This document shows, in pieces, positions 15,001 through 21,000 of a stretch of DNA of 54,498 bases. This stretch comes from Armatimonadia bacterium (lineage in GTDB: Bacteria > Armatimonadota > Zipacnadia > Zipacnadales > UBA11051), in NCBI GenBank assembly GCA_039683575.1, contig JBDKRC010000113.1:1-54498 (forward strand). Direction: 5' to 3'. Made by a program: the position numbers. Within the stretch, counting starts at the first letter, position 1. Each line of letters starts with the position of its first letter.

Positions 15001-18000
15001 TGGAGGGGCTATTGATCAGGATGGCCTTGGTTCGGGCATTGATCGCGGCCTCAACCTGCCCCAAGTCGGGCTGAAAACCATTGTCGCCGCTGGTGGAAAT
15101 CTGCACATGCTTCGCGCCACACAGCCGCACCTGTTCGGGGTAGCTGACCCAGTAGGGCGCAAACATGATCACTTCGTCGCCGGGGTCGAGGAGGGTGCGC
15201 CAGATGTTCATCAGCGCGTGCTTGCCGCCGTTGCTGACCACAATCTGGTTGGGCTCGTACTTGAGGCCCAGATCGCGCTCCTGCGCCGTGCAGATTGCCT
15301 TCTTGAGCTCGGGAATGCCACCCGCCGGCGTGTACTTGGTCTTCTGCTCGGCCATGGCGCGCTGGGCCGCGTCAATGATATTCTGAGGCGTGCCGAAATC
15401 GGGCTCACCGATGGCGAAGGAGAGAACGTCCTTGCCCTCGGCCTTCATCTGTTTGGCTTTGGTGGATCCGGCAATGGTCGGAGACGGCGAGATACCGGCA
15501 ACAAGATCGGAAATCTTCATACAATGACCTCACAGGAGAGCTTAGGGCGACTTGGAAAGCGAGGTAAGTTCAGGGGGCCTACAGGCATGCGAGCGCTGGC
15601 TGCGGCAGGTCCTGGCTCAGCAGCTTCAGCTCATCTCTCGCCTCTTCATAGCTGGGGTCGAGCGCGAGCGCCCGGCCCAGCACCAGTCGTGCGGTGGGCT
15701 TACGTCCCAGTCGCGCATAGGCCGCGCCGAGGTGATAGTACATCTCGGCGCTTTCAGCAGGCAAGTGGAGCCTGACCGCCCGCTCCAGGTAGAACGCAGC
15801 GGCGGAGAAATTGCCCAGCTTGTACTCTACCCAGCCCATGCTGTCCACATACGCGGCCTGCTGGGGCTCCATGTTCACGGCAGCATCGACAAGCGACCGG
15901 CCCTGTGGCACGTCCAGGTCGGCAACCGCCCGCACATAGCCGATATTGTTGAGCATCAGCGCATACAACTGTGACGGCATCTGATTGGCCCGCCGCGCCC
16001 GGTTCATCTCCTGCGTAACCTGCTCGAGCAGGTTGGCGCCCTCCTGCCGCGAGCCAGCCATCAGCAGGCTCTGCGCCAGACTCACCCGCGTCAGCAGGCT
16101 CTGGCCCTGCTGGCGACGCAGCCAGGGCAGCGCTTCCTTGTAGGCACGCAGGTTCACGTACAACTGCGCCGCATTCTCGCTCACCAGCGGGTGATTGGGT
16201 GCCAGCGTCGTCGCTCTCGCCAGGTCGGCCAGAGCCTCCTCGCGGCGCACAGGGTTCCCCTCTGACTTCACCTGCGCCGCGCGCACATAGTTCAGCGCCA
16301 CAAATTCGCGCCGCATCCGCCCCACCTGCGCGCCCAACCCGAAAGGCCACAGCGCGCCCCCTATCACCAGTACGCCGCCGATGAAGACCAGCCAGCCCAG
16401 CCTGGCGAGGCGTGGGTCGGCAATTTTGATCAGACCGGCCCCCGGAGGCGCCGGGATACGCATTCTTCGCCTGAACATCAATCTACTTCCCTATTCGGCC
16501 GGAGCCAGGGCTGCCACATCGTAGTAGTCTAGCCCGATGTACAGGATGTTATCGGCAATCGCAGGCGATGAGTACACCCCATAGGCTGTCTGGTGCCGCC
16601 ACAGATGCTCGCCCGTGTCCAGCGCCAGCGCGTACAGAGCCCCATCCTTACTCCCGATGTAGACGATGTTGCCCGCAATCGCCGGAGAACCGAGCACTTC
16701 CTCGGCGCTCTGCACCGACCACACGGGGTCCCCATCAACAGCGGTCACGCAGACGATCCGTCCGTCCACACAGCCGACAACCACTCGATCGCGCGCCACA
16801 GCCGGTGACGAGCGAATCTGGCTGCCCAGTTTCATCCGCCAGTAGACCTCGCCGCTCTCGAGCGAAAGCGCATAGAGGTGGCCGTCGTCCGAGCCACAGT
16901 AGACCACATTCTGGACAATCGCCGCCGAGGACGCGACCGGCGCCTCAGTTACGCGCTGCCACAGCTTCGTCCCGTCCTCAGTCGCGTACGCGTAGAAGTT
17001 GCCGTCCCAGGAGCCCACGACCATCGTGCCATTTGACACGGCTGGGATGGCAGAGACCTCCCCGGCTGTCTGCGCCTTCCACAGCACCGAACCGCTGTCG
17101 ATGCTGATGGCCGTTACATGGCCGGTGCGGTTACCTACGAAGAGCCGGTCACCCGACAGCGTGACCGAGGAGCGGATTGGCGCCCCGACGTCGCGCTGCC
17201 ACAGCCTTCTCCCCGTGTCGGCGGCCGCCGCATGAACGCGCCCGTCGTGTGACCCGACAAAGACCCGGTTATTGGCCACGGCAGGGGTGCTCTCAATACG
17301 GTCGCCCGTCCGTAGCCGCCACTGTTCGGCGCCCCGCTTGGCGTCGAGCGCGTACAGGTGTCCATCACGCGAGCCGACGAACACGAGGCCGCTGGCCACC
17401 ACTGGAGAGCCCATGATTGGGCCCCTGGTGCTGTAACTCCAGACCTGCCGCAGGGGCGGAGCGATCTCAACCTCGGTGGCTCCGTCATGCGTCGCTGCCC
17501 GGTGGAACATAGGCCACGCATTGATCGCCAACACCGACTTCTGGCGCTGTTGCTCAACTTCATCAAGCGCCGTCTGCACGGTGTCCTGCCCCAGGTCCGT
17601 CCGCGACAACCGTAGCGCCGCCTGCAGGTAATTCGCCGCCTTATCGTAGTCCCGTCTCTGGTTGGCCGCAACGCCCAGCGCGTACTGCAGCTTCGGCAGC
17701 TCCGGATAGGTCTCCACCGCCGAGTTCAGAGCCTGCAACACGTCATCCTGCGCCGCCAGGTACCCGAGTGCATAGGCGCCTGCCCAGGGCAAGCCTTCCG
17801 GCCCCGTCAGCCGCTTCAGCAACGCCTCGTGCGCCCTCGGCTCGGAGAGTTCCAGCAGTGCCTCGGTCACTTCATGGCGCAGCGTCTCATCGCCGTCCTC
17901 GATGGCCGCATACAGGTGCCGCAGGCCGCGCCGCAGGTGCAGCTTGCCCACACCCCGTGCCGCCCATGCCCGGGCGCTACCGGGCCCGCGCCGCAACTCC

Positions 18001-21000
18001 GCGAGCAGTTCCCGCTCCATGCCTCGCAGCGCCTCGGCCGCATCGGTCCGCACCCGCTGATCCTCGTCATCAAGCAACATTACCAGTTGCTGGATGTAGG
18101 CCCGGTCCGGATACTTGATCGTCGCCCGAGCAGCCGTCAGCCGCACGTGGGGGCTCTCATGTCCCAGCAGCGACCGCAACAGCGCCGTCTGCCCCTCGCC
18201 TAGCTCAGTCAACCGCCCAAACCAGTACTCTTCATCCATCTGCTCGATGGCAGAGCTGCGCAGAACCAGTTCAAGCTCTTCAGGCGAAATCGACAGCGCC
18301 TCGCGAGCATCGTTGATAATGCGCAACTCATCGGCATGCATCAGGATGCCGAACTTCTCGTAGTTGTTTAGCTGCCGCGTCAGCAGGTCCTGGACATCCT
18401 GAACCTGTATCTCCCGCTGCGACAGCCACTGGCCTATCTGGTCGGCCAAGTACTCGTGGATCAACTCATACTGGCGCTGCCGCTCCTTACCCACTCCCCG
18501 CACCAGCCGCAGGTCCATCAGTCGCGCCAGCACCCGCTCAACTTCCTCACGATCCTCGTTCACATCGCCCGCAATGCGCTCGAGCGTACGCATCACGCGC
18601 ACCTCGCTGGACGCCACCATCTGCTTCAGTATGGCCTTGGCAATGCGGCGGTCCAGGGGCGGCAGCGACATGAGGATCTGATCCAGGAACTCGGCCAGTA
18701 TCTTCTGCGACCCGCCTGCCCGGTCATAGATCCCCATAGTGATCGTGCGCATGCTGCGCGGCTTGCTCTGGTACAGCCGGTCGCACACGATCTCGAGCTG
18801 CGCGGGTTCAATGCCATCCCGGTACAAGTCATCCAGTAGCCGGTCCACCAGCGTGCGCTCCAGCCGGATATCGAAATTCTGTGCCGGCTTGATGATCGCG
18901 TCCTCCGCCTGCTCGCGCGTAAGGCGCCGCAGACGGTACATGTGGTGCATGATATCCGGCAGCTTCCGCTGCAGGTCGTACAGGCTACCCACGAAATCTT
19001 CACGAATCGACAGCAGCCAGTGCACTTCCGGCAACTGCTCGATGCAGTCGCTCATCTCGTCAAGGAAAGTCTCCTGGACCCGCGGGCCCAGGTGGACAAA
19101 GTACTCTTCAAAGTGATCGAGGAAGATCGCCAGCTTGCGGTTCACGAGCTTCTGCACACCCGCCAGGAAGCTCCGCAGGTCCGCGATCTTGCCTATGCCC
19201 GAGGGGTCGAAACCGATCTCTTCCACCGCTGCCACGAAAGCGTCCTTGATGCTCTGGGCGGGGTCATCAACACAGCGCGCCGTGATTGGCAGCCAACTCT
19301 CGTCCGGCGTGTCAGCCTGTTCGGCCTCGTGCTGCAGCGCGGCAATCAGTCCGGCGCGCACCAGCGAAGTCTTCCCAATTCCCGACCGGCCAAACAGCAC
19401 CATTATCGGGTTCTGGCGCATCATCTCCAGCACCACGTCCACGTCATCTTCCCGGCCGAAGAAGAAGTCCTCGTCCTTCATATCGAAGTAATCGAGGAAC
19501 CGGTACGGCCCACCGCGCAGCACGGTCAGGTCCTTGCGCCGCCGGTCGTGCGGCCGGTGCGACCGCCGGATCAGCCGGCCGTGCATCTTGCCGAAGAAGT
19601 CGTTGAACGTCCCCGGCTCCCGGCAAAGCAGGTGCCGTCCGGAGTGTCGCGCTTCGAGCAGCGCCATTACCTCAGGCTGGAAACGGTGATACTCGACACT
19701 CGCCGGGTTCTCAACCTTCAACTCGTCAAACAACCGCTCATCCCGCATGGGGATCATGCGGTTGACCCAGAACACCTTGCCCCCATCACGGCTCACATGC
19801 CGCAGCACCCGTTCATCCCGATCGGCAAAGGCCGAGAAGACCGAGAACACGCGGAACGTGTCGGCGATGACGTCGTGCAGGTCGTCATAGCACGCCGCCA
19901 CCTCAGCCTGGGACATCGGCAGGAACTTGCTCTCGGCATCACCCGCGCACTTCACCAACACCACCCGGGTCGAGTCGCGCAGACCCACACCGATAGTGTC
20001 CGCGTCATCGATGCCGGCGACGAAGTGGTGGTAGTCCTTTTCCGGCTCCATGTGGTTGACCTGGAGGCATTGCTCCAGGATCCGGTCGGGTTCAGCGAGG
20101 AAGATCGTGGGGAAGTACCCATCCTTGATCAGACGGGCGAGGCGGATGTGTCCCTCGGAGGGGCGAGCATCGGCAAGCCGCTGCTTGAGCATCAGGCAGC
20201 GCTCGGCGTGGTCGGGCACTTCGCGGGCATAGAGCTCTATTGCCTCCGGCCCCCGGCGTTCCGGGGGCAAGGCGTCAAGCCGGTGCCCGGCCCACTCAAG
20301 CGCCATCTCCTGCAGCAGTTCATCCACCCGCAAGTCGCGCGGGGGGATGACGACGGCGCTGCCCACGAAGAGCGCGTGCTGTCCGAGTTCGTGTCGGTGT
20401 AGTTTGATGAAGTCTGCGATGACGCTTAACATGAGGGAAGCGCAAGCCTCTGTGTCACATGCAGTGGCGCCAGACGCGTCTGGCGTCGGCACCGGTGTAA
20501 GGGCCGGCAGGGCAAGTGGCTTGCCTGCTCCCGACTTCGCCCTGACCTACAGCCAAAGACCAAATCGCCACTCCGCCGCCGGGCACAGCCCGATGTCTGG
20601 AGTGGCGTCGGTTAACTACTGTTGTGGTGGGCCCGGCCGGATTTGAACCAGCGACCAATCGGTTATGAGCCGACTGCTCTAACCGCTGAGCTACGGGCCC
20701 GGAGCACATGCCTATAGACCCCTGCATTATACCCCTTCCGACATGCGTGTGCAACTGACCAAGCTGGCCGTGGACGGGCTATTCCAGGTAGTCCCGCAGC
20801 CGCTTGTTCCGGCTCGGATGGCGCAGCTTCTTCAGCGCCTTCGCCTCGATCTGCCGGATGCGTTCGCGGGTCACTTCAAAGATGTGCCCCACTTCTTCCA
20901 GCGTCCGCGAGTACCCGTCCTCGAGGCCGAAGCGGAGCTTCAGCACCTCGCGCTCGCGCTCGCTCAGGCTCCCCAGCACCTTCTCGAGCTGCTCGCGCAG

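Follow-up and report, generated by a model that had tools for sequence, protein, structure and literature searches.

A class-wide, single-copy STAND gene of Armatimonadota with a SIR2 domain that lacks its catalytic residues

The window analysed here comprises 54,498 nucleotides of contig JBDKRC010000113.1 (assembly GCA_039683575.1) from an Armatimonadia bacterium of the class Zipacnadia (order Zipacnadales, UBA11051). All features described below lie on its minus strand. The gene under study is a core gene of 1313 aa (16491-20432), the ORF reported in the genome-wide survey's note, and encodes a pseudo-SIR2 domain, an nSTAND1 NOD, a HEAT/TPR arm and an eight-blade PQQ-type propeller. Its start was set at ATG 20432 and not at GTG 20492 because 38 of 39 orthologues have their Met1 at the equivalent position. 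Upstream lie dnaG, encoding primase (22889-25099 as an open frame, in which translation probably starts further in), and rpoD (20779-22944), whose product has an insert of three Big_5 Ig-like domains separating region 1.2 from region 2. The survey's note had placed the gene directly downstream of rpoD; a tRNA with a CAU anticodon (20625-20700), one of three in the genome, lies between them. This tRNA has paired G1-C72, C4-G69 and C5-G68 together with A73, determinants that we take to suggest tRNA-Ile2. It is followed by a terminator-like hairpin with a T-rich tract (20567-20606), whose stem sequence is conserved across families. A sigma-70-like site precedes the tRNA (20726-20753, 10/12 matches) and is not above chance, as three such sites were found against 2.0 ± 1.3 expected. 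Downstream, a coupled gene of about 300 aa (15579-16481) encodes an N-terminal hydrophobic anchor and TPR repeats, and is followed by an aspC-like aspartate aminotransferase gene (14336-15520) and by an isocitrate dehydrogenase family gene (12968-14047), a frequent neighbour. RNA data from four runs of one study (two samples) contained near-identical contigs inside the gene and one contig across the spacer (20366-20642), for both of which DNA carry-over is possible.

The end of rpoD was found within 2 kb of the gene in 23 of 40 loci (20 of the 29 from the order). The tRNA, the TPR gene and aspC are more constant neighbours: the CAU tRNA lies upstream in 32 of 40 loci, being missing from 8 of the 11 outside the order, the ORF downstream is the TPR gene in 30 of 38 cases, its start often overlapping the preceding stop, and aspC is present in 30 of 40 loci. 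In five loci of one deep branch the gene sits between a cyclophilin gene and mreC, and it is kept in at least four unrelated gene contexts. Since the neighbours differ between branches, the context points to no pathway. The TPR gene is single-copy in 70 of 79 genomes and was not found in 8 deep-branch genomes having the STAND gene; a lipobox is present in 11 of 30 orthologues, and ESM Atlas returned generic TPR clusters for its product. An apparent STAND-TPR fusion in genome G002 turned out to be a frameshift near residue 1260. PADLOC matched 5 of 131 neighbour ORFs, two of them DnaG and RpoD and one DprA, and no defence island was seen around the gene among these ORFs, which are mechanical calls, some on the wrong strand. 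The insert of RpoD matched 41 of 43 class genomes and no RpoD among 258 others (one outside match is not RpoD), and genome G235 also has it. A direct link to RpoD through this insert was nevertheless not supported, as G391 carries the STAND gene with a plain 378-aa RpoD frame and 17 of 40 loci do not have the two genes together (a contig end cuts one of the 17). A recent insertion of the gene at the tRNA was rejected, given a GC content like that of the flanks, dS like that of the neighbours and the loci outside the order that have no tRNA; an ancient insertion there may have occurred.

The protein can be divided into five parts. A SIR2_2-derived domain (aa 1-290, 19563-20432) is followed by the nSTAND1 NTPase module (aa 309-687, 18372-19508), a helical arm with HEAT repeats (aa 688-910, 17703-18371), a single TPR-like repeat (aa 914-945, 17598-17693; a weak Pfam match, TPR_1 E 0.005) and a PQQ/BamB-type beta-propeller with a period of 40 residues (aa 970-1310, 16503-17525). 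The SIR2-nSTAND1-HEAT-PQQ layout proposed earlier was thus recovered, by Pfam for nSTAND1 (309-687), HEAT_2, one TPR and the PQQ_2 propeller, and by fold matches for SIR2. No transmembrane segment was detected in the 1313-aa protein (best 19-residue hydrophobicity window, 1.25). Its current annotation as BamB is a misnomer: it shares with BamB a PQQ-type eight-blade propeller, but reaches 206 bits where the NCBIfam cut-off is 285, has no signal peptide and is fused to a cytoplasmic NTPase.

The SIR2 identity of the N-terminal domain is supported by both sequence and fold. Residues 1-300 of the home-genome protein have no Pfam match, as had been noted, but this does not extend to the whole family: SIR2_2 (PF13289) matched 5 of 8 deep-branching N-termini, one orthologue passing the cut-off (31.3 against 24.5 bits). 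Direct sequence homology to SIR2_2 relatives was found with phmmer (E down to 4e-16), while a PDB sequence search returned only the SPARSA Sir2 for the SIR2 profile (E 0.14) and nothing for the NOD. In the structural model (pLDDT 94.3) the fold spans residues 1-291, and its matches are the three named before, with KomC (Z 16.6) and SeThsA (Z 16.4) tied as best, followed by EfAvs5 (Z 14.3). A family-specific insert of about 25 aa follows N224/P228. SIR2_2 relatives outside the family occur in many architectures, with TIR, CHAT, EAD7, bDLD1, FHA or NACHT, and close stand-alone copies of the N-terminal domain were limited to two fragments among proteins of 165-525 aa. ESM Atlas gave SIR2_2 clusters at 0.88 for this domain, which we regard as leads only.

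The survey's note had described this domain as devoid of the usual catalytic Asn and His, and the wider sampling bears this out. The home protein reads GSAV in place of GAGAS, LAEPD in place of TTNFD and KCAG in place of KLHG. None of the 39 locus proteins has the Asn of TTNxD and two of the 124 database members do, against 70 of the 78 nearest outside SIR2_2 domains used as outgroup; His or Asn at the HG/NG site occurs in 0/39 and 0/124, respectively, while His is found in 68 outgroup domains, 63 of which keep both residues. The two members that retain the Asn, as TCNVD, are deep-branching. The GAGxS loop is also absent, with G24 invariant but Ala at position 25 in 0/39 and Gly at position 26 in 19/39, and the GYS loop is eroded like GAGAS (Gly at 201 in 10/40, outgroup 74/78). 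Position 114 holds seven different residues and position 163 eight, mostly Gly or Ala. K161, C162 and G164 had been listed as invariant; K161 and G164 are so in 39/39 locus proteins, whereas 162 is Cys in 24. D116 is kept in 29/39 and E177 also remains. Besides K161 and G164, there is no variation at G24, W222, H249 or G274, and 33/40 keep N224; compared with the outgroup, S154, W222, H249, P253 and R271 are invariant in this family only. Mean identity is 0.42 for the SIR2 domain against 0.39 for the NBD. Defence by Avs5 is lost with N110A/N141A and with Ala or Gln at the His/Asn site, although Asn can stand in for His (PMC12931631 and, for the loss of defence, PMC11897194). Judged by these motifs, the NADase activity of the domain would have been lost.

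The nSTAND1 module, in contrast to the SIR2 domain, keeps its motifs. The nSTAND1 profile (PF20703) scored 187.9 bits against a cut-off of 27.1, which was exceeded in all 79 class genomes. Walker A is intact as GRSGIGKTS, in agreement with the earlier reading; K354 and the Walker B D439 are present in 39/39 proteins, the GxP P543 in 38/39 and the winged-helix His H659 in 36/39, with R477 as the sensor residue. The NOD model (pLDDT 90.7) has an NBD-HD1-winged-helix fold, with STAND and Orc/Cdc6 proteins as top matches. The best was 8bob, from maltose-system regulation, with a chain that we take to be MalT (Z 17.8; rmsd 7.2 across 344 residues); 2qen and 1w5s tie with it, and the Avs5 fold reached Z 12.6. 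The nearest NODs carry FGE-sulfatase, HD-CE or SIR2_2 domains, and WD40 is also among the partners of close nSTAND1 relatives. In the propeller, R1022, E1047, R1087, W1142, D1182 and R1207, placed on the top face from the blade register, are each fixed in their own blade (34-38 of 38), while across 86 blades from 17 other ORFs these sites are variable.

Across genomes, the gene was found in 79/79 of the class, including MAGs just 59-68% complete, and it is the sole nSTAND1 match in 76 of them. The earlier claim of a single-copy core gene of the order therefore holds and extends to the class; in the present search residues 1-300 match 65 of 66 other order genomes, and full-length matches are 41-80% identical. 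Outside this class and the second one described below, nSTAND1 proteins are patchy (15 of 254 phylum genomes), and 90 plasmid records matched the NOD only, none covering 80% of the query. The gene tree groups each multi-member family together and requires 14 family changes, the minimum possible (shuffled mean 29.2). The dN/dS values, rough estimates as dS is near saturation, were 0.08-0.22 for SIR2 and 0.09-0.30 for the propeller (9 pairs), compared with 0.10-0.17 for rpoD (5 pairs) and 0.16-0.33 for dnaG (6 pairs), and did not exceed 0.30 in any domain of the gene; the SIR2 domain was better conserved than DnaG in 6/6 pairs. A stop or frameshift interrupts the gene in 5/79 genomes. The loss, duplication or transfer expected of defence genes was not seen in the tree or the class genomes. 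The gene is inherited vertically and is under purifying selection like rpoD. In a second Armatimonadota class (7/7 genomes) the same STAND-HEAT-propeller body carries an eroding HD-CE domain in place of SIR2, and at least four of these genomes have a cold-shock-domain fusion gene immediately before the STAND gene; this fusion gene was not found in 5/5 first-class genomes.

Several known systems resemble parts of this protein. Avs5 (EfAvs5, 9jap; AVAST5 filament, 9nc9) shares an N-terminal SIR2 on a STAND NOD, a C-terminal sensor and the kept Walker A/B, and its SIR2 fold superposes with rmsd 3.5 over 226 residues. The Avs-type label of the survey's note fits the layout and goes no further: TTNxD, HG/NG and GAGxS are absent, the gene is core and vertical outside defence islands, and its HEAT and PQQ sensor differs from the Avs5/SAMD9-like helical sensor assigned to Avs5 (PMC13581612). 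The NOD scores as nSTAND1, with a fold match to Avs5 of Z 12.6 against 17.8 for the best. ThsA, KomC, SPARSA and other SIR2_2 effectors are homologous, but this gene has lost the catalytic residues and gained the insert. The nSTAND1 conflict proteins have an effector-NTPase-sensor layout (Kaur et al. 2021, PMC8195603); they are patchy and sometimes multi-copy, whereas here the gene is fixed in single copy and its effector has decayed. SAMD9/SAMD9L also place a non-catalytic SIR2-like domain before a STAND NOD (SIR2 Z 10.9, NOD Z 13.3), and in SAMD9 this domain is an unlikely NAD binder that holds the NOD in a clamp and forms dimers once activated (10.64898/2026.02.02.703423). SAMD9 stands apart by a tRNase effector, a TPR-OB sensor and antiviral activity, while in the protein described here SIR2 begins at residue 1 with no second effector, the helical lid is retained and the origin is independent; the AlbA-before-SIR2 arrangement and C-terminal OB fold of SAMD9/Avs9 are absent, as SIR2 occupies residues 1-291 and the propeller reaches the C-terminus. 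MalT-type regulators are housekeeping ligand-gated STANDs and include the best NOD fold match. MalT ends in a DNA-binding HTH; the only such element here is the winged helix of the NOD, and an effector domain of conflict type is retained. No description of the family was found in a mostly open-access literature search (nSTAND1/SIR2, Armatimonadota, domestication, HD-CE), including the supplements of PMC13581612.

Bacterial STAND receptors with SIR2 effectors are known as patchy, mobile suicide systems. Because the NADase residues are lost and the gene is a single-copy, vertically inherited core gene of the class, it probably serves as a switch in routine signalling and not as a means of suicide. 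We give roughly even chances to domestication as an NLR-like switch, with a fixed ligand bound by the propeller and the dead SIR2 serving as an assembly surface, as in SAMD9. At rest the cytoplasmic protein would be closed, and ADP or ATP would sit between Walker A/B and H659. The propeller and HEAT arm would bind one fixed self ligand, probably an acidic or phosphorylated peptide, and binding would open the NOD and lead to oligomerisation. The SIR2 domain would no longer cleave NAD+ but would act as a clamp and as a surface for assembly or for recruiting a partner, and the kept end of its pocket may still hold an adenine nucleotide. The ligand and the output are what we infer. The description as a domesticated pseudo-NADase is strengthened by homology, by the loss relative to intact relatives and by vertical purifying evolution, with the loss of activity read from motifs. 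Against the switch count the two Asn-keeping members, the remaining D116, E177, K161 and G164, the five interrupted copies, the neighbours that change between branches, and a fixed propeller face, which is also compatible with a conserved phage target.

The latter is central to a fixed immune sensor, whose propeller would detect a conserved phage protein or guard a host protein while the dead SIR2 recruits a separate effector in trans, in the manner of an animal or plant NLR signalling domain. The close relatives of either module are without exception conflict-type proteins, the two classes have different N-terminal domains as in effector swapping, and the second-class cold-shock fusion could be an effector; yet the housekeeping-like dN/dS, the stable descent, the lack of a defence island, the lack of any SIR2_2 partner match in the home genome and the failure to find the cold-shock gene in those five first-class genomes make this reading unlikely. 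Less probable still is a SIR2 domain that remains an enzyme or a NAD+/ADP-ribose sensor with rewired chemistry (e.g., E114 or D, K161, H249). Its high conservation, its invariant residues with N224, the retained Asn and the replaceable Avs5 His agree with it, but the variability at 114 and 163 and the eroded loops do not.

We would assign a similarly low, marginally smaller chance to an envelope-tied structural scaffold, nucleotide-bound and non-switching, working with the membrane-anchored TPR protein or Mre proteins. The tight TPR neighbourhood and the mreC-like genes following in five loci are consistent with it, as are EfAvs5 and SAMD9L, which bind ATP without turnover (PMC11897194 and 10.64898/2026.02.01.703102). 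The STAND protein has no membrane segment, however, the TPR protein probably faces outward because of its lipobox, the TPR gene was not found in those eight STAND-bearing genomes, and the sole apparent fusion was a frameshift. A functionless relic carried passively in an essential operon appears very improbable and, given the data on selection and context, is already refuted in large part: it sits among housekeeping genes and five MAGs are broken, but dN/dS is low throughout, the unrelated contexts retain it, and its break rate resembles background (a stop in 1 of 70 TPR genes; aspC is frameshifted too in genome G021).

Beyond the domesticated switch itself, a fuller history seems possible, if doubtful: a bacterial NLR would have been captured once in the ancestor of the two classes and become an essential housekeeping switch, with its effector exchanged (SIR2 or HD-CE) and each version separately disarmed, the dead SIR2 now being an assembly platform that holds an adenine nucleotide and responds to a fixed self ligand. 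Many switches between defence and non-defence have been deduced for bacterial STANDs from clade patterns (PMC13581612). The gene offers a concrete case with a legible history, comprising an intact outgroup, two Asn-keeping members, a dead class-wide version and a second class with a different, eroding effector on the same body. It can serve as a clean class marker. It also gives a model, open to testing, for the domestication of an immune receptor and for the role of SIR2 after NAD+ cutting stops, which bears on SAMD9. If true, the fuller history would be a prokaryotic parallel to the SAMD9 pseudo-SIR2 and to the non-immune NLRs of animals.

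The ORF at 16491-20432 (-) encodes a protein of 1313 aa without an evident transmembrane segment. Pfam placed nSTAND1 at residues 309-687 and also recognized HEAT repeats, a single weak TPR and a propeller of PQQ type; residues 1-300 had zero Pfam matches. A STAND switch has just these components (a sensor, a nucleotide-held nucleotide-binding module, or NOD, and an N-terminal output), and the protein, an nSTAND1 member, would work like a STAND receptor. Residues 1-300 were matched in 66 of 67 genomes of the order Zipacnadales and 78 of 79 of the class Zipacnadia, home genome included; in the single exception (G005) the STAND gene was cut by a contig end. 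The nSTAND1 profile matched all 79 class genomes. Four of them gave two matches, due to a STAND gene split by a frameshift in G021 and to an unrelated nSTAND1 in the other three. A 40-row profile found weak matches (E 2e-9 or worse, frames of 372-637 aa) in 10 of 340 genomes from other classes, and the middle of the protein (residues 550-975) matched 30/30 class genomes, 4/4 genomes of one other family and 0/227 others. Named records among the relatives were from Armatimonadota, including one Ca. Zipacnadales entry, and the lineage carrying the gene is known mostly from MAGs. No published description of this SIR2-nSTAND1-propeller family was found in the literature searched.

The predicted model of the N-terminal domain (pLDDT 94.3) resembled KomC (Z 16.6, rmsd 3.6, 236 residues aligned), SeThsA (Z 16.4, rmsd 4.0, 254 aligned) and EfAvs5 (Z 14.3, rmsd 3.5, 226 aligned), and Foldseek agreed with these matches. 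An exhaustive sequence search linked this N-terminus directly to SIR2_2 domains bearing GAGAS, TTNFD and KLHGD; by homology, the protein also belongs to SIR2_2. We then compared the family with 78 outgroup SIR2_2 rows (98 new rows minus 20 family members or fragments). Asn and His were both kept in 63 of these rows, Asn only in 7, His only in 5 and neither in 3. As the genome-wide survey's note had proposed, the usual catalytic residues were all but absent from the STAND family: the Asn occurred in 0/39 locus proteins and in 2/124 from databases, and neither of these overlapping sets had His or Asn at the second site (0/39 and 0/124). The two members keeping Asn read TCNVD and KLMG, so the motif decay may have been stepwise. 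That note had also listed K161, C162 and G164 as invariant, which held for K161 and G164 among the 39 locus proteins but not for C162 (24/39). According to the accessible parts of two reports, Avs5 requires the first Asn and accepts His or Asn, but neither Ala nor Gln, at the second site (PMC12931631, PMC11897194). Given these requirements and the missing residues, NADase activity has likely been lost. The domain has acquired the family invariants S154, W222, H249, P253 and R271 and an insert that 71/78 outgroup rows lack; by analogy with sirtuins rather than from coordinates, we assume these to sit close to the pocket's adenine end. The protein lacks the defining motifs, sensor and context of Avs5 and the defining motifs of active SIR2 NADases, and is thus a member of neither group. 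Two other SIR2_2 arrangements were observed: the protein P0211 combines SIR2_2 and nSTAND1 with an Hsp70 domain that is nearly complete, and in G001 (L068:419-6813) a separate gene of SIR2_2-like + CHAT type is flanked by a JAB-domain gene and a WD40/propeller gene, likely a conflict locus.

In the NOD, Walker A Lys and Walker B Asp were found in 39/39 locus proteins and the winged-helix His in 36/39; one database member lacked the Walker A Lys. Structures resembling the predicted NOD model (pLDDT 90.7) were those of STAND and Orc/Cdc6 proteins: 8bob, 2qen and 1w5s shared the top (Z 17.0-17.8), NLRP3 reached Z 16.6 and Avs3, 4 and 5 reached Z 12.5-13.1. Six propeller residues, R1022, E1047, R1087, W1142, D1182 and R1207, were each fixed in their own blade (34-38 of 38 proteins), while among 17 other ORFs of the home genome (86 blades) the same two blade positions varied.

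The other family matched by residues 550-975 belongs to a second Armatimonadota class of seven genomes. All seven carried a single-copy orthologue of the STAND-HEAT-propeller body, in pieces in G446. In the three complete copies compared, the body (residues 309-1310) was 32% identical, and 66 of 85 invariant body positions were common to both classes. The N-terminus of the second-class proteins (loci L144, L145, L146, L147, L154 and L156) was an eroding HD-CE domain instead of SIR2: 5/6 matched the HD-CE profile, two over the cut-off, and, read off the alignment, 4/6 retained the His-Asp pair and 2/6 all three motifs. Each class formed one group in the NOD tree (99/96 and 100/100), but the branch joining them had a support of only 66/63, so the case for a common origin draws more on their shared architecture than on this tree. 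Last-blade propeller motifs were common to both classes, and none of the five fixed propeller residues (out of six) compared with the second class was shared. This pattern suggests that the propeller's top face, assigned by blade register, would bind one fixed ligand in each class. The second-class gene is immediately preceded by that of an 880-aa protein with a cold-shock-domain N-terminus and ~800 residues without Pfam match (L146:10911-13553, L145:5385-8054, L147:2848-5529), which was not found in five first-class genomes.

The STAND gene had been placed directly downstream of rpoD, which proved inexact since a tRNA with a CAU anticodon (20625-20700, -) and, behind it, a hairpin with a T-rich tail (20567-20606, -) separate the two genes. 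The exact hairpin pattern occurred once in the home genome; its stem sequence itself, beyond the pairing, was recognized by eye in ~19 of the 32 spacers, where the loops differed in length. Among 40 loci (the window plus 39 fetched across families), the tRNA lay ≤400 nt upstream of the STAND gene in 32, rpoD ended no more than 2 kb away in 23, and aspC lay downstream in 30. A membrane-anchored TPR gene made up 30 of the 38 ORFs downstream of the STAND gene. In families f8, f9 and f11 (5 loci), the order was ychF, cyclophilin, STAND gene and mreC-like genes, the latter a tandem pair in f8 and f11, with one confirmed in f9 (L073, L074, L075, L076, L077). Other features were noted around the gene. 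In the primary sigma factor RpoD (20779-22944), regions 1.2 and 2 are separated by three Big_5 Ig-like domains. This insert was matched in 41/43 class genomes and also occurs in G235 and G416; G391 lacks it, and at E 1e-15 it was found in no RpoD from 258 other genomes of the phylum. A 308-aa ORF (26649-27575) without Pfam or NCBIfam match had relatives upstream of dnaG in 16 of the examined loci, and a gene with a prepilin-type N-terminus (12159-12887) was the best-covered stretch in RNA contigs, whose depth cannot rank genes.

Inheritance appeared vertical. A tree of 39 STAND proteins (truncated G003 left out, G002 cut ahead of its frameshift) needed 14 family changes, the fewest possible, and each of the eight multi-member families formed one side of a branch (support 97-100). 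The dN/dS values, rough because dS was near saturation, ranged over 9 pairs from 0.08 to 0.22 in the SIR2 domain and from 0.09 to 0.30 in the propeller; the comparison genes gave 0.10-0.17 (rpoD, 5 pairs) and 0.16-0.33 (dnaG, 6 pairs). Counting against vertical descent under purifying selection, five genomes had broken STAND genes, sought only among those with short frames: G057, G060 and G063 through TAG stops, G002 and G021 through frameshifts. A stop in 1/70 copies of the TPR gene and a frameshifted aspC in G021 make assembly error likely. Loci L129, L131 and L132 had one in-frame stop apiece, all TAG and at positions differing between orthologues, most likely base-call errors. It is very improbable that the gene is a relic.

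An alternative reading, an immune sensor that is fixed and works in trans, seems unlikely. nSTAND1 has been named as a conflict-system NTPase in the accessible part of one report (PMC8195603). The surroundings are no defence island: at 1e-20, PADLOC matched five of 131 mechanically called neighbour ORFs (DnaG, RpoD, DprA, a QatC-like protein and an 89-residue mad3 stretch). The available portion of the Zipacnadia paper (PMC10290634) mentions neither defence, phage nor PQQ. Less likely still is that the SIR2 domain acts as a rewired enzyme or as a nucleotide sensor. An envelope scaffold formed together with the membrane-anchored TPR protein is judged quite unlikely.

The probably dead output enzyme and an evolution like that of rpoD make a housekeeping switch the best reading, one that we believe and doubt in roughly equal measure. 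In such a switch, the propeller would bind a fixed host ligand, the NOD would then open and oligomerise, and the SIR2 domain would serve as a clamp and as an assembly or recruiting surface. SAMD9 offers a precedent: as described in the accessible parts of two reports, its SIR2-like domain, judged an unlikely NAD binder, reinforces the closed state and dimerises upon activation (10.64898/2026.02.02.703423, 10.64898/2026.02.01.703102). Altogether, the domestication of the STAND gene is surprising and well supported.
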